From a virus (taxonomy: Duplodnaviria; Caudoviricetes), in the IMG/VR virus record IMGVR_UViG_3300020020_000040, positions 1 to 52,690 of that record: 52,690 nucleotides of DNA; one strand, 5' to 3'. Under the pieces are notes generated by a model, which saw only the letters and a program-made list of their open reading frames with translations, searched no databases and was not told the origin of the DNA. Within the stretch, counting starts at the first letter, position 1. Every line of letters starts with the position of its first letter. The translations under genes and the position numbers were made by a program. Shown here piece by piece: positions 1 through 48,945 of the stretch.

Positions 1-182
1 ACCCATTATTAACTAGTTAGTTAATTGAGGCGATGAGAATGATTCTCAACAACTGCATGATGGGGGCTCATTTCACACTGCGGGGGGGTGGGGGGGCAAA
101 CTTTTGGGCTGGGCCTGGTGCCGAATCCCTCATGACTTGTACGATAAAATTTTGAAACTATGCCTGAGATTGTAAATAGTTC

Positions 183-211
183 TTGACATTTGGTTACGTT
201 TGTGGTATAAT
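183..211 (+). promoter_or_regulatory. Consensus sigma70 promoter driving the packaging/structural arm
   Basis: TTGACA (183-188), 17-bp spacer, TATAAT (206-211). Confidence 0.9.
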
Positions 212-220
212 ATATGGGTA

Positions 221-592
221 GGTGGAAATTGTCCACCAAAATCAACAGGAACTGGCTTTCCCACGCTGTCTGTGGGCCGGAAAGTAGTACCGGATAAGTT
301 TGTTAAGAGCATGCAAATCTAGGGGCGCCAGCCAGACGAAAGCTAGACAAGCGCTAGTAGTCTGGGAAGAATCGTTAATGTGATTATTTTGAACAGATGA
401 GGGCAGGCTAGCGGAAGCCTGGGTAGACGAACCCCCTACCGAACTACTGTAGGATAAGTACCTACAGGGCTGAGAGGATATGAAATTCTGTTGATACCAC
501 TTGTCTAGGACATTCTTTGTTCTACATTCTTTTCTGTGTTCTTGTTCCATTGAACTTGACACCGATGAAAGAGGGAATCACGAACCCCCTCT
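221..592 (+). ncRNA. Highly structured non-coding leader or ncRNA (unknown class)
   Basis: No credible ORF. Long-range helix ATCAACAGGA(241-250)/TTCTGTTGAT(486-495) encloses several hairpins, e.g. CCCAC/GTGGG, CCAGAC/GTCTGG, CAGGCT/AGCCTG, GGTAG/CTACC, CTGTAGG/CCTACAG. Confidence 0.55.
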
Positions 593-640
593 ATGATCTT
601 GTTACGTCCAAAATATGAAAAACTCGTAGGAGTCTACACA

Positions 641-886
641 ATGAATTTCCTTGCCTATCTCGTTATCTCGATGACCCAGCTTACCCCACTTGGGCCGGCT
701 ATCACTAACGTTGCTCTCCCGTTCCCTACCCTGGAAGCCTGTGAGTTTTACCGGCAGTCGGCTGAATCGGAAGTTCTTTCTGCTTCGCAGCTTAATCTGA
801 TCAACTCGTCTATTGAGTGTGTTGATTCGAAAGCCCTGCATGGTGAGCCGGAAGAGCCGAAAGCAGACCCCAAGAAGCAGATCTAA
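641..886 (+). CDS. Small hypothetical protein with hydrophobic N-terminus
   Basis: AGGAG RBS upstream of ATG 641; MNFLAYLVISM... FPTLEAC. Confidence 0.65.
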   Translation: MNFLAYLVISMTQLTPLGPAITNVALPFPTLEACEFYRQSAESEVLSASQLNLINSSIECVDSKALHGEPEEPKADPKKQI

Positions 887-887
887 T

Positions 888-1427
888 ATGGGTACGGAAG
901 TTGTTCAATATCAGCAACTTCCTCTAGAAGCAAAGAGAGAGATCAGGGAGAAGGCTCCTCGAATTTGGTTCGAGACTAAGTCCCTGGCAGAGACCGGCAG
1001 ACGGTTGAATGTTAAGTATGAGACTCTCAAAGAGTGGAAGAAGACACGTTGGTGGGCAGATTCCATTCAGGAGCTAGAGGAAGTAGAGAAGGCCAGGACT
1101 GCACGGCGGCTTGGCCAGCTTACGGAGAAGGGCATTGATATTGTCCTTGAAAGACTGGAAGAGGGAGACCACGCCTTTAACAAGGCAGGTGAACTGGTAC
1201 GTAGACCCGTGTCTGCACGGGACGCATCTCGGATTATGTCGGATGCTCTGGATCGCAAGATGAAGCTTGAAACCGCAAGCAAATCATCTCAAGAGGCTGT
1301 GGTAGCTTCACTTGTTGATCTGGCGCAACGATTTGCCGAGCTAGCTAATAAGAAGCCTAGGCTCATTATCGATGCAGATGTTACTGACGTAGAGGTTATA
1401 GATGCCGCAGATCCAACTGACGTCTGA
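888..1427 (+). CDS. terS: Terminase small subunit
   Basis: N-terminal HTH-like segment (SLAETGRRLNVKYETLKEWKK), helical body, overlaps the start of terL; ATG 888 follows the upstream stop. Confidence 0.7.
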   Translation: MGTEVVQYQQLPLEAKREIREKAPRIWFETKSLAETGRRLNVKYETLKEWKKTRWWADSIQELEEVEKARTARRLGQLTEKGIDIVLERLEEGDHAFNKAGELVRRPVSARDASRIMSDALDRKMKLETASKSSQEAVVASLVDLAQRFAELANKKPRLIIDADVTDVEVIDAADPTDV

Positions 1428-2931
1428 TGTTATTGAGGGATTTGTCGGTAGTGTACTAGCCAATCGTTATGACAGTGCTACAGCCATTCCCAAGTTCCAT
1501 AAGGAGCTTTGGGAGTTGGCGTGTAGTGACCAGAAGTTTGTTGCCATTGCTGCCCCTCGGGGGCATGCTAAGTCAACGGCTGGGACGATTGCGTACACAC
1601 TAGCCTCTATCCTATTCCGATCATCGAACTACGTAGTCCTGGTGTCTGATACAGAATCCCAGGCAGTCATGTTCCTACTAGCTATTAAACAAGAATTACA
1701 AGAGAACAAGGATATCAAGGATCTCTTCCACCTCACTGTCGATGAAAAGGGAGTGAAGTTTGAGAAGGATACCGAATCGGTAATCACTGGTTCTTTCAAA
1801 GATGGACACAAGTTCAGGATCATTGCCAAGGGTAGTGAGTCTAGTCTTCGTGGATTGCTGTGGAATGGTCAACGACCAGACCTGATTGTGATCGACGACT
1901 TCGAGAATGATGAGCTTGTGATGAGTAAGGACAGGAGGGAGAAGCTGAAGCGGTGGTTCTATGGAGCCTTGCTGCCTTCTCTGAAACCTTCTGGTAAGGT
2001 TAGGATGTGGGGAACTATCCTCCACAACAGTTCGCTGCTTGAATCCCTGATGCCGTCCCTCACTGCTAAGAATACAGTACAAGTGGGACTGCGGATGCAC
2101 TCTGCACCAGCACCATTCTTTAGGCCGATGTTCAAGTCCCTGCGGTATCGAGCACACTCAGATGATTACAAAGAGATCCTTTGGCCTGATCGATTCGACA
2201 AAGAGTTCTACAAGACTAAGAAAGCTGAGTTCGATAAGCAGGGTTTGAGTGATGTCTATGCTCAGGAGTACCTGAACATGCCGATTGATGCCTCCAAGGC
2301 GTACTATCGGAAGAGTGATATGCAGCCAATGCAGGCAGAGGACAAGAAAACTCGCAAGAAATACTATGTCACTGCTGACCTAGCCATCTCCCAGGACGAA
2401 CGGGCGGACTATACCGTCTTTGTTGTCACTGGTATGGACGAAAACCGTACAGTTCATGTGTTGAATGTCATCCGTGAGCGTATGGATAGCCTGGAAATCA
2501 TCGAAACAATCTTCCAACTCCACAAAATCTACAATCCCGAGGCTATCGGCATCGAAAAAATGCAGGTATCCCAGGCGATTGCCCCTATTTTGCGTGAGCA
2601 AATGGTCCAACGTGGGATTTTTCCTAACATTCTTGAGCTTTCGCACATGAATAAGGACAAACCAACACGTGGTAGGTCAATGCAAGCGCGATTGAGGGCA
2701 CAAACTGTGAGGTTTGACAAGGATGCTGACTGGTGGCCTGCTCTTGAAGAGGAACTTTCCCAGTTTCCTAGAGGAAAGAACGACGACCAAGCCGATGCCT
2801 TCGCTTATGCTGGGCTTTTACTCGATAAAATGACTGAGGCCCAGACGGATCGGGAGATTCGTGAAGAAGAAGATGAAGAAGCTCTGGCTGACACAGCCTT
2901 TACCTCCAGGAATCCGATCACTGGGTACTAA
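1402..2931 (+). CDS. terL: Terminase large subunit
   Basis: Walker A APRGHAKST, Walker B LIVIDDFEND, C-terminal RNase H-like nuclease (ADLAIS, GIEK, DDQADA). Confidence 0.93.
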   Translation: MPQIQLTSDVIEGFVGSVLANRYDSATAIPKFHKELWELACSDQKFVAIAAPRGHAKSTAGTIAYTLASILFRSSNYVVLVSDTESQAVMFLLAIKQELQENKDIKDLFHLTVDEKGVKFEKDTESVITGSFKDGHKFRIIAKGSESSLRGLLWNGQRPDLIVIDDFENDELVMSKDRREKLKRWFYGALLPSLKPSGKVRMWGTILHNSSLLESLMPSLTAKNTVQVGLRMHSAPAPFFRPMFKSLRYRAHSDDYKEILWPDRFDKEFYKTKKAEFDKQGLSDVYAQEYLNMPIDASKAYYRKSDMQPMQAEDKKTRKKYYVTADLAISQDERADYTVFVVTGMDENRTVHVLNVIRERMDSLEIIETIFQLHKIYNPEAIGIEKMQVSQAIAPILREQMVQRGIFPNILELSHMNKDKPTRGRSMQARLRAQTVRFDKDADWWPALEEELSQFPRGKNDDQADAFAYAGLLLDKMTEAQTDREIREEEDEEALADTAFTSRNPITGY

Positions 2932-2956
2932 CTCAACACACAAAGAGAGATAACTT

Positions 2957-5110
2957 ATGGCCTTTCCTCCTGATATGCCTCTACCCCAAGGTGATCCCTC
3001 TCAGGGGATGGGCATGCCTCCCCAACCTCCGGCTGCTGCACCTGACATTAACCCAATGCCCAGTGATTTCTTTGCAGAGGAGCCGGATTCCTATCAATCC
3101 AACGTTTCAGCGGAGACACAATATGAAACTAATCTCAAAGCTCAAAAGTTTGCTGCAGAAGCTAAAAAGAACATTGCAGAATCTCTTTCAGAAGAGCGCC
3201 TAAACGAGATCGGGTCCAACTGCAAGCGTTCCTTCGACATCGATGTGCAAACAACGAGGCAATGGAGGAATGAGGTTGACCAGTGGATTCAGTTAGCTAT
3301 TCAAGCACGGGATCCTAAGAACTTCCCGTGGAATAACGCTAGCAATATCAAGTTTCCGCTGGTCTCCATTGCTGCCATGCAGTTTGGAGCCCGTGCCTAC
3401 CCGACACTTGTACCATCTGGTGACAAGATTGTCAAGCCCGTTGTCTTTGGTACAGATGCTGATGGCTCCAAGCTCAAACGAGCACAACGAGTCAGCAAGT
3501 ATATGTCATGGCAACTGCTGTATGAGATGGATGGTTGGGAAGAGGACATGGATTTCCTGCTCCTCCAGCTGGCTATCATGGGTACGATGTTCAAGAAAAC
3601 CTTCTACGATCCCCATTGTGAGAAGGTTAAATCGGAGTTGGTTGACCCTAGGGAACTGACTATCAATTACTTCGCTAAGAGCATGAACGAGTTCCAGACA
3701 ATCTCTGAGCACTGGTTCCTGTACAAGCGTGAGGTTATCGAACGTCAGCGATCTGGTGTCTTCCTTGAAGACGTAGAACTTGGTGATCCCACCATGTCCG
3801 CATTTGAGGGGGTGAGTTATGTCCCTGCTGACACAGAAGATGTTCCGTATTTCCTGGTCGAACAGCACTGCTGGATCGATCTAGACGATGATGATCTCCA
3901 AGAGCCCTACGTCGTTACGTTTGAGAGGTCTACCGGAAAGGTACTCTCGATCTATCCCCGATACTTCCCGGAAGATATTAAGGTCCGAAAAGGGAAGATT
4001 GTCTCTATCAAACCCTGTTCTCAATACACAAGATTTTCTTTCATTCCAAATCCGGAGTCTAAGATCTACAGCTTGGGATTCGGACATCTCCTTGGACCAA
4101 TTAACGAAAGCGTTAACACCATTGTTAACCAGCTTGTCGATGCAGGAACCCTATCCAATCTACAAAGTGGTTTTATTGGAAAGGGGCTTCGTCTTGCGAA
4201 GGGTGAACAAATACTCCAGCCTGGGCAGTGGAAGCAAGTAAATGCTGTAGGCGATGACCTTCGTAAACAGATCGTCCCGCTTCCTGCCAACGAACCATCC
4301 AATGTGTTGTTTCAACTCCTTGGGTTCCTGGTTCAGTCTGGTAAGGAACTGGCGTCTGTTGCTGAGATCTTCGTTGGTAAGATGCCTGGTCAGAATACTC
4401 CTGCCACTACTACGATGGCAAGTATCGAGCAGGGCATGAAGGTGTTCACTGCAATTTATAAACGTACCTATCGAGCTCTTTCCGAAGAGTTCGATAAACT
4501 CTACTACCTGAACAGTAAGTACATGGACTTTGAAACCATGGTGTCTGTTCTTGATGAACCTGTCAATCCCCAGGACTTCAATACGAAGGACTACAACATT
4601 CTTCCGGGTGCTGATCCGACTGCCGTCTCTAGTACGGAACGTCTGATGAAAGCCCAGGGTCTGTTGGAACTTCTGCCCCTTGGTACCATCGATCCTCTCG
4701 AAGTTACTAAGCGGGTGCTTGAAGCCCAGGAACAACCGGACTGGGAAGCGCTCATTCCGGGTATGAAACAAACTGGTCAGCCACAGATTCCACCTCCTCC
4801 TCCTGATCCGAAGATGTTGGCTATGGAAGCTAAGGCTGCTAATGATCAGCAAAAAGCACAGATGGATGCTGAGAAACAGCAACGTCAAATGGCTATGGAA
4901 GAAACCAGTAACGAAGCTCAGCTTGCGATGAAGGCTCAAGAGAACACCCTCAATCAACAGCATGCAGCAGTTATGGGCAACATCGAAGCCGAAGGTGCTC
5001 GACGCAAACAAGAAATCTTTATGGCAGAAGCAAGGCAGAAAGCTCAGCTAAGGAACGAGGAGTCCAAAGCTAAACAGCAGGCTGCTAAGTCTACTCCCAA
5101 AAAGAAATAA
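2957..5110 (+). CDS. Portal protein (podoviral, long C-terminal coiled coil)
   Basis: 717 aa directly after terL; PWNNASN, LVDAGTLSN, TATTTMASIEQG motifs; Q/E/K-rich C-terminal helix. Confidence 0.85.
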   Translation: MAFPPDMPLPQGDPSQGMGMPPQPPAAAPDINPMPSDFFAEEPDSYQSNVSAETQYETNLKAQKFAAEAKKNIAESLSEERLNEIGSNCKRSFDIDVQTTRQWRNEVDQWIQLAIQARDPKNFPWNNASNIKFPLVSIAAMQFGARAYPTLVPSGDKIVKPVVFGTDADGSKLKRAQRVSKYMSWQLLYEMDGWEEDMDFLLLQLAIMGTMFKKTFYDPHCEKVKSELVDPRELTINYFAKSMNEFQTISEHWFLYKREVIERQRSGVFLEDVELGDPTMSAFEGVSYVPADTEDVPYFLVEQHCWIDLDDDDLQEPYVVTFERSTGKVLSIYPRYFPEDIKVRKGKIVSIKPCSQYTRFSFIPNPESKIYSLGFGHLLGPINESVNTIVNQLVDAGTLSNLQSGFIGKGLRLAKGEQILQPGQWKQVNAVGDDLRKQIVPLPANEPSNVLFQLLGFLVQSGKELASVAEIFVGKMPGQNTPATTTMASIEQGMKVFTAIYKRTYRALSEEFDKLYYLNSKYMDFETMVSVLDEPVNPQDFNTKDYNILPGADPTAVSSTERLMKAQGLLELLPLGTIDPLEVTKRVLEAQEQPDWEALIPGMKQTGQPQIPPPPPDPKMLAMEAKAANDQQKAQMDAEKQQRQMAMEETSNEAQLAMKAQENTLNQQHAAVMGNIEAEGARRKQEIFMAEARQKAQLRNEESKAKQQAAKSTPKKK

Positions 5111-5125
5111 CGCCAAAGAGGCTCT

Positions 5126-5329
5126 ATGAAAATTATCCCAGAGCAACTAGCTGCATGGAAAGATGATGAGGTTACACGAGAGTTGTACCAAATCCTCAAA
5201 GAAACGCAGGCTGGTTTAACGCAACAGTTAATTGCGCAAGCAGGTACGAATCCTTCTGATGATGCTCGCATCGCCGGAATGATCCAAGCCTACGAAGATG
5301 TTATGACAGTCGATCTCAAAGGAGATTAA
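5126..5329 (+). CDS. Hypothetical protein (head module)
   Basis: 67 aa ORF with GAGG RBS between portal and GroES. Confidence 0.7.
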   Translation: MKIIPEQLAAWKDDEVTRELYQILKETQAGLTQQLIAQAGTNPSDDARIAGMIQAYEDVMTVDLKGD

Positions 5330-5334
5330 ATACC

Positions 5335-5688
5335 ATGTCCATTAGTCCGATTGGCTACCGAGTGTTAGTCAAACCCGATAAACTTGAATCCGATAAAACC
5401 TTCAAGGCTGCCAAAGCGGCTGGCCTTGCACTGCCTGACAATCTGGAATCTATGCAGATTGCCGAGCGTAAGTTGGATTCGGGTGAAGTGATTGCAATTG
5501 GTGAAGCTGCCTTCCGAGTTTTCAAATCAGAAGCTGGCATCCCACAGACTACCCCTGCCTGGGTTAACGTTGGTGATCGTGTTGTGTTCGCACAATACGC
5601 TGGTAAGACCATCATCGATCCTCAAGACGGTGAACGATATCTTGTCCTCGCGGATGAAGATCTTGTCGCTGTGGTGAGAGGTGAATAA
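5335..5688 (+). CDS. groES: GroES/Cpn10 co-chaperonin
   Basis: PIGYRVLVKP, GEVIAIG, VGDRVVFAQYAG, YLVLADEDLVAV. Confidence 0.88.
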   Translation: MSISPIGYRVLVKPDKLESDKTFKAAKAAGLALPDNLESMQIAERKLDSGEVIAIGEAAFRVFKSEAGIPQTTPAWVNVGDRVVFAQYAGKTIIDPQDGERYLVLADEDLVAVVRGE

Positions 5689-6488
5689 TGGCTGATCCAA
5701 ACCAACCCGTCATCGATCCTGTCGTTGACGTTGCTCCCGATAATACGCCTGAACCTACCATCGACGATCGTGCGAAGGAAATGGGATGGCGTCCTCTCGA
5801 AGAGTATGAAGGTGACCCGGAGAAGTGGGTTAGTGCCCAATCGTTCGTGGACCGCAAACCGCTGTTCGATAAGATCGATTCGCAAAACAAGCGAGTCAAA
5901 GCTCTGGAGAAGAGTCTCCAAGAACACAACGCATCTATGGCTGCGTTGGCTGAACACCACAAGAAAGTAGCTGAGACCTCTTACAAGAAAGCCCTGGCTG
6001 ACTTGAAAGCTGAACGTCGGGCTGCTGTTCGTGCTGGTGATCACGAATTGATCGAACAAATTGAAGATCAAATTGATGAACTGAAACCGGATCCGGTGCC
6101 TGAGATTAAGACCCAGGAACCACAACCGTACACCCAGGAAGTCAATGAATGGATGGCCGAGAATTCTTGGTACAATTCCAACAAAGAAATGCAGCACATT
6201 GCCGATGGTTTTGGCAAGGCTGCTCAAGCTCGCGGACTCTCCACCCCGGAGATTCTGGCTGAGATGAAAACTCGTATGCGGGAAGTCTATCCTGACTTCT
6301 TCCGTAATCCGAATAAAGACAAAGCCCCACCTTCGAAGACGAAGGACCATACCGCTACTGCTCACAAGGCTTCAGCCTATAGACCCACCGCTCAACAGCA
6401 GAAGTTCGCTAAGACCTTCGTTGAATCTGGTGCGTTTAAGTCTGTGGACGAATACTACAAACAGTTGCGAGAACTAGGAGAACTGTGA
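5688..6488 (+). CDS. Capsid scaffolding protein
   Basis: Acidic/Pro N-terminus, AKEMGWRP motif, coiled coil, position upstream of the capsid gene. Confidence 0.7.
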   Translation: MADPNQPVIDPVVDVAPDNTPEPTIDDRAKEMGWRPLEEYEGDPEKWVSAQSFVDRKPLFDKIDSQNKRVKALEKSLQEHNASMAALAEHHKKVAETSYKKALADLKAERRAAVRAGDHELIEQIEDQIDELKPDPVPEIKTQEPQPYTQEVNEWMAENSWYNSNKEMQHIADGFGKAAQARGLSTPEILAEMKTRMREVYPDFFRNPNKDKAPPSKTKDHTATAHKASAYRPTAQQQKFAKTFVESGAFKSVDEYYKQLRELGEL

Positions 6489-6880
6489 TGACTGAAACCG
6501 TTCGCGCGCCGAGAGGGCGTCCTAATCGTAGGGAAGCTGCTGGATTTCGCAATCGTCTTGCGATCTCTGGACAAGACCCTAGTTTTGTATATCGTATTGT
6601 GAATGACAGTGATGGTCGGGTTGCTTACTTTGAGAACCTTGGTTATGAACTGTGCAAGCACGACGAAATTAAAGTTGTGGGAAAGCGTCAGACTCAACCA
6701 GATGCCAAGGAAGGACAGCTTGCTGTTATCTCCGTAGGTGGTGGGCAGAAAGCTTATGTCATGAAGATTCGGAAAGATTGGTACGATGAGGACCAAGCCG
6801 AGAAACGTGGCATGATTGATGAACAACGCAAAACCATTGGACAATTCGAAGGGAGTACAGGCAGAGTCAAAACTGGCTAA
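6488..6880 (+). CDS. Conserved head-module hypothetical protein
   Basis: TGATG overlap with scaffold; YRIVND...GRV...LGY. Confidence 0.7.
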   Translation: MTETVRAPRGRPNRREAAGFRNRLAISGQDPSFVYRIVNDSDGRVAYFENLGYELCKHDEIKVVGKRQTQPDAKEGQLAVISVGGGQKAYVMKIRKDWYDEDQAEKRGMIDEQRKTIGQFEGSTGRVKTG

Positions 6881-6906
6881 CCTGCTCCTATTAATGGAGA
6901 ATTTTT

Positions 6907-7500
6907 ATGGCTAACGTTAATCGCGTTGACGGGTTTGGTCCCGTTAAGTACAACAATGGCGCGCCGTGGAACGGTGCTTGCCATCTGTACTCGGTGCAGG
7001 CCTCTGATAACACTGCGCTGTTTATTGGTGATCTGGTCAAACTGGATGGTACTGCTGATGCTAATGGCATCCGTGGCGTCACCCAAGCTGCTGCTAGCAA
7101 TGCGGTGATTGGTGCTGTTGTTGGGTTCCTCGTGAACTACTCGAACATCAATGCTGCTCCGTATCGCCTGGCCTCGACGGCTCGGTATGCGCTGGTAGTT
7201 GACGATCCTGATGTTCTGTTTGAAGCTCAAGAAGATGGTGATACCGATCCCCTGGAAATGGTTGATGCCGGTCTGAATGTGAACTTTGTTGTTGGTTCTG
7301 GTAATACGACCACTGGTATGTCGGGTATGCAGATTGACTCGAATACTGAAGCTACGGGCGCCACGCTCCCGCTTAAGTTGATCCAGCCTGTGCAACGTTC
7401 GGGTAATGAACTGGTTGCTGCTGGCCAAGCGTATACGCGCTGGCTGGTTAAGATCAACAACCATCAGCTTGGTAGCCATACTGGCACGGCTGGCGTTTAA
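6907..7500 (+). CDS. Capsid decoration/auxiliary head protein
   Basis: Beta-rich G/A/V protein directly upstream of the MCP with highly expressed codon style; GGAG RBS. Confidence 0.6.
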   Translation: MANVNRVDGFGPVKYNNGAPWNGACHLYSVQASDNTALFIGDLVKLDGTADANGIRGVTQAAASNAVIGAVVGFLVNYSNINAAPYRLASTARYALVVDDPDVLFEAQEDGDTDPLEMVDAGLNVNFVVGSGNTTTGMSGMQIDSNTEATGATLPLKLIQPVQRSGNELVAAGQAYTRWLVKINNHQLGSHTGTAGV

Positions 7501-7512
7501 GGAGAATAAGAA

Positions 7513-8430
7513 ATGGCTGGTGGTATTATCACTTCTTCGTCCTTTGCTAAATCCCTGTGGCCTGGCGTAAATGCCTGGTACGGGAAAGCTTACGACGAGT
7601 TCCCTGTTGAGTACACGAAACTGTTTGATACGCACACCTCGAAGCGTGCGTTCGAAGAGGACGTCGGTACTTCTGGCTTCGGTTTGGCCTCGGTTAAGAC
7701 TGAAGGCGATTCGATCGTCTATGACGCTGAGCGGCAAGGTTTCGTTACCCGCTACTCGCACGTTGTGTACGGCATGGGCTTCATCATCACGCGCGAAGCG
7801 GTGGACGATGATCTGTATGATGTTGTTGGTTCGCGTAAGGCGCAAGCCCTTGCGTTTTCGATGCGTCAGACGAAAGAGATCGTTGCTGCTAACGTGTTCA
7901 ATACCGGTTTCACCGGCGGCCCGACCTATGGTGACGGTGTTAGCATGCTGAATGCTTCGCACCCGAACATGGCCGGTGGCACGTGGTCTAACCAACTGAG
8001 CACCGCTGCTGACCTGTCGGAAGCTTCGCTTGAGCAAGCTGCCATTGAGATCCAAGGACTCACGAATGACCGTGGCCTTAAGATCGCTGTTAAGCCCCGT
8101 ACCCTGGTGATCCCGTATCAACTGGAGTTCGAAGCTGCGCGTATTCTTAAGTCGGTTGGACGTGTTGGCACGGACCTGAATGACATCAATGCACTGAAAG
8201 AAGTTGGCATGTTCCCCGGTGGAATCGTAGTCTCGCACTACCTGACCGATCCGGATGCATGGTTCATTCGCACCAATGTTCAGCATGGTCTGAAGCACTG
8301 GCAGCGTCGTGCTGACGAGTTCGCGATGGATAATGATTTCGATACGGAAAACGCCAAGTACAAAGCTACTGGTCGTTACTCGTTCGGTATCACCGATCCG
8401 CGTGCGATCTTCGGTTCGGCTGGCGCCTAA
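7513..8430 (+). CDS. Major capsid protein (HK97 fold)
   Basis: 305 aa, AAGGAG RBS, followed by a terminator; motifs KTEG, ITREAVDDDLY, SHYLTDPDAWF, RYSFG. Confidence 0.85.
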   Translation: MAGGIITSSSFAKSLWPGVNAWYGKAYDEFPVEYTKLFDTHTSKRAFEEDVGTSGFGLASVKTEGDSIVYDAERQGFVTRYSHVVYGMGFIITREAVDDDLYDVVGSRKAQALAFSMRQTKEIVAANVFNTGFTGGPTYGDGVSMLNASHPNMAGGTWSNQLSTAADLSEASLEQAAIEIQGLTNDRGLKIAVKPRTLVIPYQLEFEAARILKSVGRVGTDLNDINALKEVGMFPGGIVVSHYLTDPDAWFIRTNVQHGLKHWQRRADEFAMDNDFDTENAKYKATGRYSFGITDPRAIFGSAGA

Positions 8431-8436
8431 TGCCCG

Positions 8437-8465
8437 AGGGCCGGGAGAAATCCTGGCCCTTTTTT
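8437..8465 (+). terminator. Intrinsic terminator after the capsid gene
   Basis: AGGGCCGGGA-GAAA-TCCTGGCCCT followed by TTTTT. Confidence 0.85.
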
Positions 8466-8478
8466 ATAGGAGATTAAG

Positions 8479-8892
8479 ATGCCTGTATTTAATGTGAATC
8501 TGAGCTATCCGAAACCTCGTGCTCTGCAAACCAAGTTTGGTCTGATCGCCCGTACCGATTCAGCTACCGCGAAACTGGTACTCCCGAAAGGTAGTATTCC
8601 CTGGAAGGTTGAATTCCTCCAGACCAGTGCCGCTGTTACTGATGTTGGTGGTGTTGATATTGGTTGGACTGGTGATGCGGATGCGTTGGTTGATGGCCAT
8701 GTGTTCGGTACTACGCTTACTGGTTCTGGTCCTGCTACGGGTGTTACCGCTGGTCTGTCGCTTGGGCAACCCCTTGCTGCTGACACGGTGATTACTGCTA
8801 CGTATGTGGTCGGGTCGTCTACCGCTGGTGGCGCTGCTATTTTTGCAATCCACTACTTCATGCCGGGTCCGGGTGAAGGGATCGATGCCTAA
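8479..8892 (+). CDS. Putative virion structural protein
   Basis: AGGAG RBS; small beta-rich protein. Confidence 0.65.
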   Translation: MPVFNVNLSYPKPRALQTKFGLIARTDSATAKLVLPKGSIPWKVEFLQTSAAVTDVGGVDIGWTGDADALVDGHVFGTTLTGSGPATGVTAGLSLGQPLAADTVITATYVVGSSTAGGAAIFAIHYFMPGPGEGIDA

Positions 8893-9209
8893 TGGAACCT
8901 ACCCTCGAATTGGGGGGTAGAGAACCTAGACCTATGGGCTGGCAACTTGACAAAAGGATTTCGATACAGCACCTATCCACGGTGATTGCAATGTTGCTAG
9001 CCGGCTTGGCTGCATTTAATTCAGTCTCCAAAGAAGTTGCTGTTAACGCTGTGCGGATTTCTTTAAGTGAAACACAATCCGTAGTGCTAAAGGCTGATAT
9101 TCAGTCTACCCTTAACGAAGTAAAAGCGGAGATACGAGACCTCCGAAATGAGGTCAAACTATTTCAACTTAGGACAGTCACACAAGCACAAGTTAACAAT
9201 AATAAATGA
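8892..9209 (+). CDS. Single-TM plus coiled-coil membrane protein (holin-like)
   Basis: WQLDKRIS then hydrophobic TVIAMLLAGLAAF, then heptad LNEVKAEIRDLRNEVK. Confidence 0.55.
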   Translation: MEPTLELGGREPRPMGWQLDKRISIQHLSTVIAMLLAGLAAFNSVSKEVAVNAVRISLSETQSVVLKADIQSTLNEVKAEIRDLRNEVKLFQLRTVTQAQVNNNK

Positions 9210-22663: not shown

Positions 22664-25600
22664 ATGGAAAAGGGTAATTGGGGTGATCTCGAAAAAGAGG
22701 TCACTGGTAGTTGGGGTGATCTAGAGCAAGAACTGGGCGGAAGTTCAGGTAAGTCGTCAGCAGATCTTCGCAAAGAATACGAAGCGATGCCTGATCGTGA
22801 TCTGACTACCATGGCATCTGACTTTGCTGGTCGTGCTACTAAGGCAGTCATGAGTATCCCCGGTTCTATTACCGGATTGGTTGCACCTAGCTCCCAGTTG
22901 GCCAAGGACTTCAAAGATGCCAACGAGATTATCGACAAGACATGGCTGTCTAGCCAAGCACAAGCACTGGATAAAGCTAATCAAGCTGGGATGAAAGAAG
23001 CCTCGGCTAAGGGTGAGTTGGGTGTCAGTGAGTGGCTTGGTCAGATGGCCAAGAACCCCACTGAACTACTCGGTAGTGAGGTGGTTGGTCAGGGTGGTCC
23101 TCTCATTGGTCTGGGTAAAGTCCTTGCCACTAAGAGCACTGCCCTTGCCCTTGGTGTTATGGGTACTATCAACAGTGCCTCTAGCATGGGTGAAGTCCGT
23201 CAGACATTCTATCAGAATGTACAGAAGGCTTCGGATGAAGATCTCCAAGCTACCACTCCATTGTATGCATCTCTCCGTAAGCAGATGGATGAAACCTCTG
23301 CTAAGAAGATTCTAGGAGAACAAATTGATGGCAAGCTTGTCGGCGGTATGGCCGCTGCTGGCGTTATTTCTTGGCTTGCTGGTAGGACTGGTGCTGAGAA
23401 AGCTATTGCGGGCGGGGCGGGTACGGGAGTATCTGGACTAATCAAGACTACCGGCAAGGAAGTTGTCGGTGGAATGGCGGAGGGTGGTACTACCAGCATC
23501 GGCGGTAACCTAGCTACGCAGTCCGTGGACCCCTTCCAAGACCTACTTGAAGGTGCAGCCCTTGGCGCTACACAAGAAGCGACTGTAGGCGTTGCTATGA
23601 GTGCTGGCGGGCATTTGCTCAGCAAGCAGGATGGCACACAGAAGGTCGTCGATAAGAAATCCAAGGAAGTTTTAGACGCTGTTGACAAACAAGTTCAGAA
23701 CAAGATTGTAGATACTGTAGTTCCTGATGCCAAGGGTGAGAAGGTTATGATGCCCAGTCCCCATGATCCTAATGTCATGTGGGAAGTGGACAAGAACAGC
23801 ACGGCCTATCGTAACTTCATGGCTAAGGCTACTGCTGCAGAGACGGGTAGTACGTATGGTGTGGATGTCGGTGATCCCGATAGCACTGATACTAACTTCC
23901 CGATGGCTAACAAGCAGCCAGTCCAAGTTGAAGCTGTTGTACAGCCCAAACAAGATTTCGGATTCACTAACATCGAAGATGATGGTATTAGTACAGTTGA
24001 TGTAGAACCTGTTGAAGTTACCCCGCCTCTTACCAAATCTGTAGATGTTGGCACTGCCTACAACTACCAGACGTTCCCTGAAGGAATGCTCCCTACGCCT
24101 ACGCCTATTCAAGTTCCTCGTGCTGACATGACGATGAATGAAGTGGTTCAGGAGCAGACACAAGATATGAACATGGGTGAGACCCTTGATTGGATCACTA
24201 CCCATGCTAAGAACCCTCAGTACCAGTGGATCTCCAATAGGCTGACTGGATTCGTCCGTGCCTATGAAGCCATTGGTGGTGAGTTCTCATTCAAGTCACA
24301 GAATGATCTGTTGAATATCCCAGGTGGTAAGGCTCAGGGTAGGTTGATCCCTAACCAGCCCAATCCACTGCGTGATCCCAATGAGATGCAGCCAGGTAGG
24401 ATGACTGCTGTTGTTGGGCAGCGTGGTCGTAGCTTCGAGACTATTCTCCATGAAGCTATCCATGGTATCACCAGCAACATGATCGCTCGGTCACAGTACG
24501 ATCCTAACTTTGCACTGGATCATCCTGCTATGAACCGTGCAGTCATGGATATGCAAGCTCTATTTGAACACGTTAGAGGTAAGTCGGATATCCCGAACCT
24601 GTCTAAGACTAATCAACGGATGTTTGATAACCTCCATGAGTTCATGTCCTATGGTCTGACTAATCCCCAGTCTGTCCAACACCTGAAGAACATTCCCTAT
24701 CAGAAGAGCAATGCCTTCGTTGAGTTCGTCCGGAAGATCGGTGATCTCCTTGGACTCACACAGAATCCTAATGCTCACGCTGAGATGCTGCGGATCTTTG
24801 ACGAGATCAGTCAGGATCCTATGCAAGCTGCCAAGACTGTACCTGTTAGTACCGTACTGGCTAAGGAGATGATCAACTACCGTAGACAGGGGTTCGATTT
24901 ACTAAATAAAACGGATCTGGAATCTGGGACGGAGGCTGCTGCCAATCTGGAAACCGACATTGCTGGCGTAGCCATGCTGTCTAAAGTTTCTGGAACGCAG
25001 AAAGCTGTATCTAAACAGTCCATGGCTGAAGCACAACAAGCATACAACTCTGCTTGGAAGTTTGAGAATGGTAAGGTAGTCATGAACCTTAAGGATACTG
25101 ACCCACATCCAGAAGCTACTGCTGCTGTGAACCAGGTCAGTGCTACCATGGACAAGTTCGTTGCTGCACTGAACAATCCTCTGTGGGTTCAACAGAACCC
25201 GAAGCTTGCGGAGAAGGTTCGTGCTATGCAGTCTCTGACTAACCAAGTAGTATCTCGACTGGGCAAGCGTGCTAGTACATCTGAACGTATGACTGCAATG
25301 CTTGACCTTGTTGGTAATGATCCTGCTAAGATTCTTCGTCTTGCACTGACAGATCCAGAGTTCTCTGGTCTGATGGCTGCTCGTACTAAGAACACTACCT
25401 ACATGAAAGCCTACCTCTCTGGTGTTCAGAACTTGTTTGATCTGAACAATATTGAGATGGGTGCTCTGATTACTAAGCTTGAGAACGCTGCTCCTGTTGC
25501 CCATGCACTGATCCCTGTATCCTCAGATGCATCCACTATCGGTACTCCTAACAGGACGGACAATCGTCTGTCTGGTTTGCTTGGTAACTTCCAATCCATC

Positions 25601-28144
25601 GGCACTCTTGATGAACTCAACATTGCTATGGCGGATCAACCGGGTGATATTAGCAGGAGTCCGATGGGACAACTACTGCGTCCTGGCATTCGACACCTGT
25701 CTGTTGACACTGGTCATCCGTTGATCAGCTTCGTCAACTACAGGATTGACCGTGCTCTATCCAAGGCCAAGTTCAAGATGAAGTCTGTTCTTGATACCAA
25801 GGATAAGCGATCGATGGTTAGTGCCATGCACAAGATGTCAGTGGAAGATAAGATCCTTGTGTCTAAGATCCTTCAGCGTGGTGATAAACTATCTGTGCAA
25901 GTGGATCCGTACCAGATTCCTGGGCTTACTAACGCCCAGATCAATGCCATCAATGCCCACTACCGAGTGGACGGAGATGTACTAGCAGAGCAACAAGCCG
26001 CTGCTAAAGCAACTGGTAACCCACCGATCAGGGCTCGGCATGGCCACACTCCTGCCTCTTTCCGTGGTACGTTTCGTGCACTGGTTAGGGATAAGGATGG
26101 TAACCCTATCGGGTTCATTGGTGAAGATAACAAGTATACCTTCGCTAAGGCTGAAGAGTGGGTGAAGAAGAATCATCCTGATGCTCACGTTACCCGTCTA
26201 CCGGATCGTGCTGCAGACAATGGATATAAGAACGCGGTTGATCTTCGTGAGTATCAGAAACTGTTTGCTGATATTCCTGATGCCTCGGAGGCTGTGATTG
26301 AAATCGCTAAGGCGATGGACAACAGCATCTACGGTATGGACAAGAGGATCAAGGAGAAGCTTGGTATCTGGGGTAGTGAAGGCAACAAGCCATGGCGTGA
26401 TGACAAGGACAATGCTAATGCATTCTTTGAGAATCTCCTGTCGTACTATGATGAGGCATACACTCACCATGCACTGCAGAGTCCTCTGAAAGATATCCAT
26501 AAAGCTACTACCGACTACGCGATGGATGCTCCCAACGCTGTTGAAGAAGTCAACCAGTATCTTCGTACCATGGTTTACCATGAGATGAATGATGTGGGTG
26601 CTGGAATCAACAAGCTAGTGGATGGTATCCTGAAAGGATTTGGCGGAAGTCTTCGTGGTACTAACAAGGCAATGTCCCCGATCAGGGAGTGGATGACTAC
26701 CTCTGCTCTTGGATTCTACAACATGCAATACCTAATGGCACAGCTTGTTCAAGTTGTAGCTACTGGTGGTCCTGTTGCTAGTGTCATCAAGAATGATCTG
26801 AAGCTCGGTACCTTTGATCAGGCTAAGGCGTATCGTGATAACCTCACGATGATGGCTGGCTTGGTTCTGGGTAAGGCTGGACCTCCGCTATCACCGGATC
26901 AGAAAGCTGCTCTTGCCTATATCAATGAGGAGACCATCGCTGGTCAATCCCACATTGAGCATAGGACTGCAGCCCACGCTGGACCTGCTGTGAGGATTGC
27001 CCGTAAGATTGGTCAGCAAACCATGAACCTTGGTGAAGCTATGACTCGTAGTCCTGTGTTCATCTCGTACTATAATCTGATTCGTAACAGCCCTGTCGGT
27101 AGAGCTATGCCTCTTGCTGACGTTCTGGATACTGCCAAGAATCTGACACAGTACGCGATGATCGACTACAACGCATGGCAGAGGCCACAGGTCTATGCTC
27201 GACTCGGTACTGCTGGTAGTCTTATCGGCACGTTCAGCACCTATAAACATGGTGTCATTGGTCTGAGTAAGACACTGGCTAAGGATGGTCTCAATGGTAA
27301 CATTGGTCCGTTCGTTCAGCTAGTGGCGTTCATGCTTGCGACTGCAGGTGCTATTGGTATGCCTGGTATCGAAGAGACTGACGAACTGATGAAGTGGTCT
27401 AACGAGAACCTTGGTACTAACATGCCTACACCGAAGGACTGGCTGCTGAAGAATGGACACCCGTGGCTTACCATGGGTCCGCTGTCTGGTATCACTGGTC
27501 TGGATCTCCATGCCAAGTATGCCATGAATAAGCTGGTCAATCTGAGCAGTGATATCATGCCCTCGTTGTCTATGTTCTACGATCCTCTGTCTGCTGTTGG
27601 TAAGCTTGCCGCTGAGTCGGTTAAGAATGGAGAGCCAAGGACTGCTACGGTTAAAGCTGCTGTTAAAGCAGCACTGCCTGCATCCCTGCGCAATCAGTTC
27701 GATACCCACTTCAATGTGAAAGAGACGCTATCAGGTAAAGGAAAGCTACTCAACAAGGAAGGTGAAGTCAAACAGTTGCTTACACAGGATGAAGTTGCTA
27801 CTCGTAAGAGTGTGCAAGGTGAGATCCTGGGTGCTAAGTCACTGACTGAATCCATTACATCCCAACGTTACTGGGAAGCTTCTAGTAAGATTAGGACGAA
27901 CGAAGATCGTATGTCTTCCATCTCCAACACATTCAAGAAATATGCATTGGATCAGTCTCTGTCTGCTGCACTGGCTAAGGAACTAATGGTTGACTATGTT
28001 GCTGCTGGTGGTAACCCTGACACCCTGATCAAGTCTGCTGGGGAGTATGTCAAGGACAGTCAACTGCCTGCCATCATGCGTGGTCTACTGAAAGGTAAAG
28101 CTACAGTGAATAAACAGATCGCCGCAGAAGCAATCAAAAAATAA
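22664..28144 (+). CDS. Large internal virion (ejection) protein with zincin-like HExxH domain
   Basis: 1826 aa, last gene of the arm; ILHEAIH and LHEFMSYGLTNP motifs. Confidence 0.7.
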   Translation: MEKGNWGDLEKEVTGSWGDLEQELGGSSGKSSADLRKEYEAMPDRDLTTMASDFAGRATKAVMSIPGSITGLVAPSSQLAKDFKDANEIIDKTWLSSQAQALDKANQAGMKEASAKGELGVSEWLGQMAKNPTELLGSEVVGQGGPLIGLGKVLATKSTALALGVMGTINSASSMGEVRQTFYQNVQKASDEDLQATTPLYASLRKQMDETSAKKILGEQIDGKLVGGMAAAGVISWLAGRTGAEKAIAGGAGTGVSGLIKTTGKEVVGGMAEGGTTSIGGNLATQSVDPFQDLLEGAALGATQEATVGVAMSAGGHLLSKQDGTQKVVDKKSKEVLDAVDKQVQNKIVDTVVPDAKGEKVMMPSPHDPNVMWEVDKNSTAYRNFMAKATAAETGSTYGVDVGDPDSTDTNFPMANKQPVQVEAVVQPKQDFGFTNIEDDGISTVDVEPVEVTPPLTKSVDVGTAYNYQTFPEGMLPTPTPIQVPRADMTMNEVVQEQTQDMNMGETLDWITTHAKNPQYQWISNRLTGFVRAYEAIGGEFSFKSQNDLLNIPGGKAQGRLIPNQPNPLRDPNEMQPGRMTAVVGQRGRSFETILHEAIHGITSNMIARSQYDPNFALDHPAMNRAVMDMQALFEHVRGKSDIPNLSKTNQRMFDNLHEFMSYGLTNPQSVQHLKNIPYQKSNAFVEFVRKIGDLLGLTQNPNAHAEMLRIFDEISQDPMQAAKTVPVSTVLAKEMINYRRQGFDLLNKTDLESGTEAAANLETDIAGVAMLSKVSGTQKAVSKQSMAEAQQAYNSAWKFENGKVVMNLKDTDPHPEATAAVNQVSATMDKFVAALNNPLWVQQNPKLAEKVRAMQSLTNQVVSRLGKRASTSERMTAMLDLVGNDPAKILRLALTDPEFSGLMAARTKNTTYMKAYLSGVQNLFDLNNIEMGALITKLENAAPVAHALIPVSSDASTIGTPNRTDNRLSGLLGNFQSIGTLDELNIAMADQPGDISRSPMGQLLRPGIRHLSVDTGHPLISFVNYRIDRALSKAKFKMKSVLDTKDKRSMVSAMHKMSVEDKILVSKILQRGDKLSVQVDPYQIPGLTNAQINAINAHYRVDGDVLAEQQAAAKATGNPPIRARHGHTPASFRGTFRALVRDKDGNPIGFIGEDNKYTFAKAEEWVKKNHPDAHVTRLPDRAADNGYKNAVDLREYQKLFADIPDASEAVIEIAKAMDNSIYGMDKRIKEKLGIWGSEGNKPWRDDKDNANAFFENLLSYYDEAYTHHALQSPLKDIHKATTDYAMDAPNAVEEVNQYLRTMVYHEMNDVGAGINKLVDGILKGFGGSLRGTNKAMSPIREWMTTSALGFYNMQYLMAQLVQVVATGGPVASVIKNDLKLGTFDQAKAYRDNLTMMAGLVLGKAGPPLSPDQKAALAYINEETIAGQSHIEHRTAAHAGPAVRIARKIGQQTMNLGEAMTRSPVFISYYNLIRNSPVGRAMPLADVLDTAKNLTQYAMIDYNAWQRPQVYARLGTAGSLIGTFSTYKHGVIGLSKTLAKDGLNGNIGPFVQLVAFMLATAGAIGMPGIEETDELMKWSNENLGTNMPTPKDWLLKNGHPWLTMGPLSGITGLDLHAKYAMNKLVNLSSDIMPSLSMFYDPLSAVGKLAAESVKNGEPRTATVKAAVKAALPASLRNQFDTHFNVKETLSGKGKLLNKEGEVKQLLTQDEVATRKSVQGEILGAKSLTESITSQRYWEASSKIRTNEDRMSSISNTFKKYALDQSLSAALAKELMVDYVAAGGNPDTLIKSAGEYVKDSQLPAIMRGLLKGKATVNKQIAAEAIKK

Positions 28145-35147: not shown

Positions 35148-35663
35148 TTACTCCGACTTGTTAATGAATGCGACGAACTGTTCTGCGACTTCGAGAACAT
35201 CGTCAATGGTGACGTCGTTGCCCTTGGTGTAGGCAACAGCTTGAGCAAGGCACGACTGACGAACGATATTGTTCTGAGTCTTGGCACGTTCCTCAGCAGT
35301 GGGGTAGTTGTTACTCACAGTACCGCGGCCAGTAGCAGTAGCAGGACTGCTAGTACGGGCGGCCCCATCAGTGTTAGCAGTGGGCACCACCGCATCGGCA
35401 GCCAGTGCCACCACGTCCCAATAACCGCGGTCATTTTTTTCCATGCGGAGTCCAATATCATCACCTTTCTTAGCAGCTGCGATAGCAGCATAAACATCAG
35501 GATTTGCATACACCTTATACAAAGATTTACTACCAGTCGAGACACGGCCATCTCGGCCAGTGCTCTTATACGTTACTGCAAGGAACTCCAGATCATCGCC
35601 CTTGCCACTCTTATTTGGCTGGGTCTTGGCTTCAACATCAACGATCGTCCAAACGATATTCAT
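35148..35663 (-). CDS. Putative ssDNA-binding protein
   Basis: Beta-rich N-domain, low-complexity linker, IVRQSCLAQAV helix; follows the polymerase; highly expressed codon style. Confidence 0.45.
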   Translation of the reverse strand: MNIVWTIVDVEAKTQPNKSGKGDDLEFLAVTYKSTGRDGRVSTGSKSLYKVYANPDVYAAIAAAKKGDDIGLRMEKNDRGYWDVVALAADAVVPTANTDGAARTSSPATATGRGTVSNNYPTAEERAKTQNNIVRQSCLAQAVAYTKGNDVTIDDVLEVAEQFVAFINKSE

Positions 35664-36382
35664 TTATTCAATGACTCCATTTCTAAAAGATTACGTCCGA
35701 CCTTTACCTCACCGGGGAAAGGGATAGACATTGTGTACCCGAAGAGTCTCTCTGCTTCGGAAGGGATGCGGTCAAACTCTTCAAGCATAATCTGACCAAC
35801 TGCTTGCGGATCTTTCGAATCAACAACGATTGAATCGTGAACAGTGATAACCATTTTACCATGAATTTTCTCACGTGTCAAGCGTTTTCGTATGTTGACC
35901 CTAGCGATCGCCATTAGATCATTGCCGGTTCCTTGTATTGGTTTGTTAGTAATCTGTTTGAGATCCCACTTCTCTACGTTCTGTCCCTTCCAGTTCTGGT
36001 AGACATTCTTTTTGAATGGCCACTCCCTACCGGTGAAGACAGTCAGCTTACCGTACCTCTCACAATCCTCCACCCACTGCTGATGTGTCTTATCCAGTCC
36101 GTAATACTTCCGATAGAACTTCTCGATAACATCGTTCCAGAAGTCCTGGTCAGTAGACACATGAGAGAAGTCAGGATCATTAGCGAACCCCCATCCAGTA
36201 CCACGAAAGATCACACGGAAGAGAAAGAACTTAGCAACCCTACGGGTAGGCAGATCGAAAGCTACTCGGTTGAGTTCGTGCGTGTCGTCGCCGTTGAGAA
36301 TCTCTTTGATCCCAACAGGATCCTTAGAAAGTTCAACAGCAAGACGCCACTCCAAACCAGCTGCATCAACGTTGACTAGCAT
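35660..36382 (-). CDS. DNA polymerase family A, C-terminal (palm/fingers) half
   Basis: Motif A VDAAGLEWR, DTH, motif B RRVAKFFLFRVIFRG, NKPIQGTG, motif C TVHDSIV. Confidence 0.9.
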   Translation of the reverse strand: MLVNVDAAGLEWRLAVELSKDPVGIKEILNGDDTHELNRVAFDLPTRRVAKFFLFRVIFRGTGWGFANDPDFSHVSTDQDFWNDVIEKFYRKYYGLDKTHQQWVEDCERYGKLTVFTGREWPFKKNVYQNWKGQNVEKWDLKQITNKPIQGTGNDLMAIARVNIRKRLTREKIHGKMVITVHDSIVVDSKDPQAVGQIMLEEFDRIPSEAERLFGYTMSIPFPGEVKVGRNLLEMESLNK

Positions 36383-36587
36383 CGTAGCGGGCGAGAGCCG
36401 CGGTTGCAGCGGGAAAGACACCAGGCATGTTCTTTACGATCCAGCGCAACTCTTCCACGCACCCCAGCATTTCCGTCACGCCGGCTGCGCCAAGTGTCAC
36501 TAAGACGTCGTCTTCGAATATCTCCCTTGATCTCACGGCATGTGCCATGAGGGCCGCGTCGATCATCGCCTGTGGTATCTCACTCAT
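36366..36587 (-). CDS. Small hypothetical protein inside the split polymerase locus
   Basis: ORF overlapping both neighbours; higher GC. Confidence 0.5.
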   Translation of the reverse strand: MSEIPQAMIDAALMAHAVRSREIFEDDVLVTLGAAGVTEMLGCVEELRWIVKNMPGVFPAATAALARYDASQR

Positions 36588-36819
36588 CATCACCACCCTT
36601 CCATCGTTTCATTGATTCCTTGCGCAGATTTTTATTCAGTAAAATCTTTTCAGCCGCGACCTTAAGTGCTGCATCAGGGAAGTTCTTCAGTGCCTTGATC
36701 TCTTTATCCCGATCAGCTACTTCTACTGTCAGTCGATTGATCAGGTACCTCTGATCCTTGATAGTCTGTTGCAACTTCTCAAAGGTATCTCGCCTGATTG
36801 TGGTTAGCTCATCACTCAT
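36580..36819 (-). CDS. Small coiled-coil protein inside the split polymerase locus
   Basis: ATGAGTGA overlap with the polymerase N-half stop. Confidence 0.55.
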   Translation of the reverse strand: MSDELTTIRRDTFEKLQQTIKDQRYLINRLTVEVADRDKEIKALKNFPDAALKVAAEKILLNKNLRKESMKRWKGGDDE

Positions 36820-46613: not shown

Positions 46614-46626
46614 TCGGTTTTATTCC

Positions 46627-48922: not shown

Positions 48923-48945
48923 ACTGTTTTATCCAGTAAAACGGT

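Follow-up and report, generated by a model that had tools for sequence, protein, structure and literature searches.

The viral record IMGVR_UViG_3300020020_000040 (Duplodnaviria; Caudoviricetes) is a complete virus record of 52,690 bases, and the window analysed here, to which all coordinates refer unless another contig is named, spans the whole of it. The packaging and structural genes form a plus-strand arm running from 641 to 28144, and the genes for replication and nucleotide metabolism a minus-strand arm running from 28206 to about 52500. The subject of this study is a leader at about 218-614, between a promoter near the left end of this soil phage genome and the first gene of the plus-strand arm, which is probably a new folded leader RNA that falls in no described family. 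Its anatomy, the pattern of its conservation, the retention of its hairpins in a diverged homologue, its non-coding status and its absence from known RNA families are shown here. The homologue is L018, a 2765-base metagenome contig with a large terminase subunit (TerL) 91% identical to that of the window. The promoter and the first genes are arranged as follows.

183-211, plus strand: sigma70-type promoter, with TTGACA at 183-188, a spacer of 17 nucleotides (nt), TATAAT at 206-211 and TG before the -10 element.
641-886, plus strand: first open reading frame (ORF), 81 amino acids (aa), hydrophobic at its N-terminus and matching no family; its L018 homologue of 80 aa lies at 1006-1248 of that contig.
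888-1427, plus strand: likely small terminase subunit (terS), 179 aa, by its position and its homology to the promoter-adjacent gene of relatives (E 1e-14 to 1e-15 against the 197-211-aa ORFs of the loci L002, L003 and L009); matched by neither Pfam nor PHROGs.
1402-2931, plus strand: TerL, Terminase_6C, E 7e-8.

A preliminary description of this DNA, prepared from the letters alone, had proposed a perfect sigma70 promoter at this place, and the site does score 12/12, being the sole 12/12 site within 1-9000; its equivalent in L018 reads TTGACA-17-TATACT. Transcription would start at about 217-219 and pass into the leader, the parts of which are listed here with their folding energies in the window and in L018.

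221-237, plus strand: stem-loop H1 at the 5' end, -7.9 kcal/mol in the window (shuffle p 0.0015) and -0.7 in L018 (p 0.09), not conserved.
241-250 with 486-495, plus strand: closing helix P1, duplex -12.4 kcal/mol in the window (p 0.001) and -10.3 in L018 (p 0.004).
252-331, plus strand: sub-domain in which an invariant candidate stem, CUGGC 252-256/GCCAG 327-331, surrounds H2, H3 and H4.
260-276, plus strand: H2, L018 interval p 0.004 at 32% identity.
277-293, plus strand: H3, L018 interval p 0.0015 at 17% identity.
298-318, plus strand: H4, weak, p 0.22 in the window and 0.16 in L018.
332-365, plus strand: H5, CCAGAC/GUCUGG in the window and CACAGC/GCUGUG in L018, -11.1 kcal/mol (p 0.0075) and -11.5 (p 0.016) respectively.
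366-403, plus strand: conserved joining region, matched by L018 at 19/20 positions over 365-384, variable at 385-394 and invariant at 395-403.
404-421, plus strand: H6, with an invariant stem CAGGCU/AGCCUG (6/6 pairs unchanged) and 3/6 loop bases different in L018.
422-440, plus strand: H7, GGUAG/CUACC in the window and, shifted by one base, GGAUAC/GUAUCC in L018, with the loop AACCCC kept.
447-467, plus strand: H8, seven base pairs in the window (p 0.0015) and five in L018 (p 0.12).
486-508, plus strand: 3' strand of P1 (486-495), then an invariant tail, ACUUGUCUAG.
509-543, plus strand: U-rich spacer, variable in sequence and length, with insertions and deletions in L018 and in contigs of the sequencing runs X7 and X8.
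544-614, plus strand: most conserved block, made up of H9, H10 and a 22-nt tail; the homology to L018 stops at 614.
544-555, plus strand: H9, GUUC/GAAC, interval identity to L018 0.87.
570-592, plus strand: H10, AGAGGG/CCCUCU, interval identity to L018 0.92, p 0.001 in both sequences.

Most of this anatomy had been anticipated, and the hairpin GGTGGA/TCCACC at 221-237, the ten-pair helix 241-250/486-495 (which includes G249.U487), the stems at 260-276, 277-293, 332-365, 404-421, 422-440 and 447-467 and the hairpin AGAGGG/CCCTCT at 570-592 were all found again. The 11-mer ACGAACCCCCT, said to occur twice at hairpin loops, does so in exactly two copies, at 427-437 (in H7) and 580-590 (in H10), each consisting of loop bases and the first bases of the 3' arm; with at most one mismatch it occurs three times in the window where 0.64 are expected, a number reached in 4/100 shuffles. 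The tract between the closing helix and H10 had been described as T/C-rich, of which the U-rich character stands but not the richness in C, the 73 bases of 496-568 comprising 31 T, 17 C, 14 A and 11 G.

Some pairings beyond these hairpins were also considered. The tail 500-508 is complementary to the H5 loop at 343-351 (-13.6 kcal/mol, p 0.001, in the window; -7.9, p 0.017, in L018), and the two can form a candidate pseudoknot that would span the closing helix; another possible partner for the tail (395-403 with 497-506) is marginal, at p 0.05 in the window and 0.09 in L018. The stem 252-256/327-331 that would enclose the sub-domain is, as a duplex, not better than shuffles, and neither is a candidate pairing of 385-394 with 606-615. 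At H1, the loose end of a near-identical DNA contig from run X5 reads, by eye, as a different hairpin of six base pairs.

Conservation between the window and L018 is patchy. Over the whole alignment (window 33-615, L018 30-668) identity is 68.6%, with 76.8% for the terS DNA; within the leader, little or no change is seen at 238-256, 321-331, 365-384 and 395-421, in the tail 496-508 or over the block 544-614, while the divergence between these segments is concentrated in hairpin arms. Mean column identity over 393-510 is 81%, the H5 loop is identical in both sequences at CGAAAG and GACAAGC, and the variable point at 385-394 carries in L018 an insertion of 21 nt, which forms a GGUG/CACC hairpin of its own in the minimum free energy (MFE) structure of that contig. 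Such a pattern indicates that the leader is under selection. Beyond 614, an extra ORF of 100 aa (689-991 of L018, no Pfam match) precedes the small ORF of L018, which means that the site directly after the leader is subject to gene gain or loss.

The diverged hairpins provide the strongest evidence for structure. Ten hairpin intervals of the window were mapped onto L018 and for each L018 interval 2000 shuffles of its own letters served as comparison; the six that have diverged, at only 17-65% identity, gave p 0.004, 0.0015, 0.16, 0.016, 0.006 and 0.12, which combine (Fisher) to p 1.1e-6, as against 0.0098 to 1 for 12 arbitrary interval sets of the same lengths in L018 coding DNA. H2, H3 and H7 are remade in L018 with different letters, and in H5 four pairs are altered on both sides with pairing kept. 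H7, at -6.3 kcal/mol (p 0.006) in L018 and -5.6 (p 0.097) in the window, appears to have 3/5 pairs broken when read in fixed alignment columns, owing to its one-base shift, and of the pairs of H8 three are changed on both sides and kept, two are unchanged and two are lost. The closing helix likewise persists (P1 p 0.004 in L018), with A244:U492 replaced by U:A, a compensatory change, and G249.U487 by G-C, the latter also in the contigs of X7 and X8. The hairpins and the helix of the preliminary description are therefore borne out by a diverged homologue.

Several results weigh against a conserved, functional fold and must be set beside these. The preliminary description had held that a folding energy no better than that of shuffles would refute it, and this is what the window by itself gives: 212-640 folds at an MFE of -121.6 kcal/mol, where shuffles average -115.5 (z -1.32, 9/100 shuffles as good), with z -1.34 for the minus strand, so that structural support comes only from the comparison with L018, the own fold of which reaches z only -2.07. 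When the window MFE structure was mapped column by column onto L018, 9/18 of the pairs changed on both sides and 12/48 of those changed on one side were kept, compared with 5-10 of 13-18 and 20-25 of 45-56 in slid controls, which leaves the global multibranch fold unproven; it should be added that MAFFT columns inside the diverged hairpins are unreliable. Covariation between the two sequences amounts to three pairs changed on both sides, a figure equalled in 72/500 shuffles (slid controls, 0-1), and it is not statistically established because there is only one full homologue. An alifold column-shuffle z of -5.3 was discarded, as four of five coding control segments gave -5.9, -5.3, -4.2 and -3.0 (two other controls, -0.3 and -0.4). 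The hairpins do not tell the strands apart either, their summed energies being about equal on plus and minus (-65.3 and -69.1 kcal/mol in the window, -59.5 and -62.2 in L018), and the plus strand is favoured only indirectly: the promoter is conserved, G outnumbers C in the core and the long-range helices contain G.U pairs. Finally, no conserved terminator/antiterminator pair and no conserved start-codon-masking pair was found in the leader, and most relatives have no leader at all.

That the stretch is non-coding, as had been supposed, follows from the fact that no ORF is common to the window and L018 and that insertions and deletions in the leader (2, 21, 1, 11 and 1 nt) are not multiples of three and disrupt the frames. 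A difference of 1 nt shifts the frame even within the block 544-614, and a minus-strand ORF of 106 aa in the window, for which Pfam gives no match, is not intact in L018. Sixteen proteins encoded upstream in relatives were compared as well, and none matches 183-640.

The RNA is likewise undescribed as far as known families go: none of the 4227 models of Rfam 15 matched anywhere in the window at the gathering threshold, and on 1-1000, with E up to 10, only four unrelated small families appeared, at 14.7-19.1 bits where thresholds of 37-80 apply. ARAGORN found no tRNA or transfer-messenger RNA gene in the window, a blastn search of 1-1400 against 50,697 phage records gave no match, and in the literature no RNA of this kind was found described.

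Parts of 1-1500 occur in seven RNA libraries and several DNA runs, and two of the RNA runs, X7 and X8, were compared with the window contig by contig. Their contigs belong to a relative 90-95% alike and cover 401-615 and 392-603, and also 1162-1499. Within 392-615 the distinct variants lie at 428 (loop of H7), 468 and 470 (junction after H8), 509-527 and 542-543 (spacer) and 487, that is, in loops, junctions or the spacer with the exception of 487, where U becomes C and G249.U487 turns into the better pair G-C. Divergence is about 4-6% of positions in the 3' half of the leader and about 6-9% at the terS/TerL junction, and these differences show selection on the leader. Since DNA can occur in RNA libraries, the presence of such contigs there does not show transcription and is weak support. 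The gaps of X3, X5, X7 and X8 over 1-1500 and the word shares of 0.05-0.07 in the five RNA runs X9 and X12-X15 are evidence neither way.

The distribution of the leader was assessed through searches with TerL, which yielded 16 viral-contig loci (TerL identity at most 50%) and 21 metagenome loci. A TTGAC-N-TATAAT promoter stands upstream of TerL in 10 of the 15 viral-contig loci examined, and, by a looser pattern, in 5/11 metagenome relatives. In these ten viral-contig relatives a terS homologue of 197-211 aa follows about 50 nt or less after the promoter (coordinates read by eye), with no long leader between. As the promoter adjoins terS in most relatives, the leader and the small ORF 641-886 constitute a lineage-specific insertion, and by this distribution the leader is an accessory module of one lineage. 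Two loci, L019 and L027, are intermediate, each having a small ORF and a leader some 150-165 nt long; their folds reach z -3.6 and +0.35 respectively, and a model of 393-510 (R1) finds no similarity in either leader. Applied to 38 sources (286,480 bases), the same model found only the window and L018, and scans of IMG/VR with six conserved motifs gave no second leader copy. Three IMG/VR loci raised by the motif scans (L161-L163) were rejected as chance, having one shared 20-mer, no wider similarity and no match to the model, and a 17-base pattern sought in genome contigs was rejected likewise, with at least 120 matches in bacteria of many phyla, about the chance number by estimate, and none of 80 loci matching R1.

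Two features of the relatives were observed in passing. In L004-L009 and L023-L025 the TerL match extends over about 2060 bases for about 478 residues, a surplus of about 600 bases that suggests an intein, an intron or a homing-endonuclease gene, and in L019 (TerL 56% identical) three tRNA genes (Phe, Pro and Asn) lie between terS and TerL, at 1456-1695 of that contig.

Taking these results together, we consider the element best described as a structured 5' leader that is new, restricted to one lineage and active in cis, with a probability of about 0.45. On this reading, 218-614 or so would be the 5' leader of the packaging and structural operon, transcribed on the plus strand from the promoter 183-211. 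Its core would be a domain of about 255 nt closed by 241-250/486-495, with at least six hairpins and nearly invariant joining segments between them, and its invariant tail 500-508 may reach back to the H5 loop; the variable U-rich spacer would then lead to a conserved block of two hairpins, with the first ribosome-binding site following shortly after its end. Most relatives have the promoter and terS side by side, and the whole would have been inserted between the two; it would act on its own transcript, tuning its stability or the passage of polymerase or ribosome into the first ORF, possibly with a protein or a small molecule bound at the conserved junctions. The relatives without it imply that the leader is needed neither for packaging nor for basic late transcription.

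Were this so, the leader would offer a new handle on the tuning of late expression in phages without their own polymerase, as well as a candidate RNA of complex fold. To our knowledge, structured 5' leaders controlling phage late operons are known from a few model phages only, and computed phage RNA candidates are mostly under 150 nt; here an element of about 400 nt, with conserved junctions, covarying hairpins and a possible pseudoknot, would head a late operon of 28 kb transcribed by the host polymerase, a case that presently rests on one full homologue. Because the element is accessory, comparisons of gain and loss and clean reporter tests are possible.

Among the other explanations, a stand-alone or processed non-coding RNA acting in trans, for example in host or defence functions and kept abundant by the strong promoter, is somewhat unlikely but deserves the most attention. 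Such an RNA would be cleaved from the late transcript at its 5' end or be produced as a short transcript of its own. The size, the many helices and the invariant single-stranded segments do resemble non-coding RNAs of complex fold more than simple leaders, and the element appears to travel as a module, being absent from relatives and followed by a different first ORF in L018. The contigs of two RNA libraries, moreover, span only about 380/401 to 609/622; however, their ends fall at 385-394 and 614, variable points at which assemblies branch, and are uninformative on RNA ends. A stand-alone RNA, which the preliminary description had also entertained, would have no terminator to end it, as none of the nine terminator-like sites in 1-9000 lies within 212-640, and no target or partner protein was identified.

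A bolder version, which we regard as rather improbable, sees here the first member of a class of large phage RNAs with a pseudoknot, a mobile module acquired between a consensus promoter and terS and made up of a 255-nt sensor domain with invariant junctions and a conserved hairpin block at the 3' side. It would gate the whole packaging and structural operon on a signal from phage or host, or be released to act in trans.

Riboswitch leaders share with the present one the invariant junctions between changeable stems (the covariation of which is, with two sequences, not significant), the variable insertion at a junction, the position in a 5' untranslated region and a Shine-Dalgarno-like sequence, AAGAGGG, that is paired (within H10); on the other hand, no Rfam riboswitch matches and the terminase and portal genes suggest no ligand. 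AAGAGGG lies 17 nt ahead of AUG593 with no link to the real start at 641, and a check for an expression platform found two possible partners for the tail 497-508 and neither the tail nor H10 tied to that start. GOLLD, ROOL and HEARO are large structured phage-associated RNAs represented in Rfam, and they resemble the leader in their length of hundreds of nt, their many helices and their phage context; unlike them, it has no match at gathering score and only two full copies are known. An IMG/VR survey gives RNA candidates of 29-151 nt, each of which needs at least three distinct IMG/VR regions (PMC10690425); these too are intergenic phage RNAs defined comparatively, but the leader is larger and has no second IMG/VR copy, and a sub-motif of it could be among the survey models.

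It had also been argued that a late arm behind a constitutive-looking promoter needs an RNA for temporal control, the leader then being an attenuator or a processive antiterminator of the put kind that sets late timing by allowing read-through of terminators. The elements of this argument are largely present: the leader lies directly behind the promoter, the terminator reported near 8437 exists (8436-8461, 11 pairs and then a T run, following the capsid gene), and scans of 52 ORFs with PHROGs and of 12 with Pfam recognised no phage RNA polymerase. The last point holds as far as recognition goes, but absence is not proven, since the 1826-aa ORF 22664-28144 matches no family. The conclusion nevertheless gains no support from the relatives, at least ten of which have the same promoter before terS with no long leader. 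In two leaderless ones (G001 and G002) the capsid gene is followed downstream by terminator-like sites, of 15 and 16 pairs, so that read-through there cannot depend on this RNA. Attenuation inside the leader is not supported either, as no terminator-like site lies in it, and the spacer, U-rich and with C only slightly ahead of G (17 and 11 of 73 bases), is a weak site for Rho loading. We therefore give this explanation little credence.

Two known systems may be compared with the leader on this point. The put element of HK022 is a cis-acting antiterminator leader of two stem-loops in about 70 nt, and it resembles the present case as a structured RNA just after a host-polymerase promoter in a phage without its own RNA polymerase; here, by contrast, there is a multi-helix domain of 255 nt with a 3' extension (about 255-400 nt in all), and the promoter-proximal hairpin H1 is not conserved in L018, although the two are set apart by the general description of put and not by sequence. 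In the lambda PR' leader the '6S' transcript ends at tR', a strong intrinsic terminator, from which Q releases the polymerase. The constitutive late promoter and the leader of a few hundred nt before packaging and structural genes are alike, whereas the leader studied here has no terminator-like site in 212-640 and no Q-like protein was identified. Late timing may instead follow from the position of the promoter at the genome end: if the opposite end, with its small minus-strand genes, enters the cell first, a constitutive promoter 183 base pairs from the end that enters last would owe its lateness to its place on the genome and not to an RNA, although this is something that we only infer.

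The 1826-aa ORF 22664-28144, which closes the structural arm and has neither a PHROG nor a Pfam match, may encode an internal virion or ejection protein.

An element acting at the level of DNA, where a replication protein, a regulator or, in the manner of cosB, terminase would bind near the left end and the hairpins would be incidental, is doubtful to about the same degree as the antiterminator. It would account for the location, 183-640 base pairs from an apparent physical genome end and beside terS, for the equal hairpin energies on both strands and for the conserved blocks that extend upstream into 33-160. Binding sites do not explain, however, why hairpins changed on both arms are retained, nor why a helix with its strands 235 nt apart is kept by two-sided change, and the relatives package with terS directly after the promoter, without this DNA. 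The same relatives argue against a packaging-linked RNA, which the preliminary description had listed as a further role; phi29 pRNA is likewise encoded near a fixed genome end beside packaging genes, but here there is no Rfam match, the terminase is of the terS/TerL type and relatives package without the element.

That the stretch has no function, being a decayed gene or a spacer with chance hairpins, is very improbable: while the single-sequence fold and the column-wise mapping onto L018 are no better than their controls and the leaders of relatives vary widely (as in L019 and L027), its blocks have changed less than the coding DNA beside them, its hairpins are retained at p 1e-6 against at least 0.0098 in controls, and not one of the 16 proteins encoded upstream in relatives matches it.

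With regard to the left end itself, window position 1 is where the record, L018 and, in X3 and X5, contigs of 151 bases come to an end, and this suggests a fixed physical left genome end, 183 base pairs before the promoter and beside terS. The upstream DNA in 33-160 is conserved with L018 in blocks, among them a palindrome, GAGAATGATTCTC, at 35-47, a G run at 84-96 and AAAATTTTGAAACTA at 146-160, which could be sites of terminase recognition or of a leftward promoter. Repeats of the GGGGGCT type, present at the two window ends, are no more frequent than chance predicts (3 against 1.25 expected).

A few observations concern the minus-strand arm. The palindrome TTTTAY-N4-RTAAAA occurs at 13 sites in the window, where none is expected from 100 shuffles (2816, 34140, 36630, 41502, 42951, 46618, 48927, 49954, 50842, 51277, 51449, 52108 and 52606). 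Twelve of these lie in the minus-strand arm, several of them in short gaps immediately ahead of the start of a minus-strand gene, and the motif has the look of an operator, a promoter or an RNA element that is specific to the phage and belongs to its early and replication genes. The DNA polymerase is apparently split between ORFs 36812-37927 and 35660-36421, with the copy of the palindrome at 36630 in the 390-base gap between them. Further along the same arm, 44560-49581 holds a gene cluster for an amidoligase, a COOH-NH2 ligase, a glutamine amidotransferase, an aminotransferase-like protein and an S6-glutaminyl-transferase-like protein.

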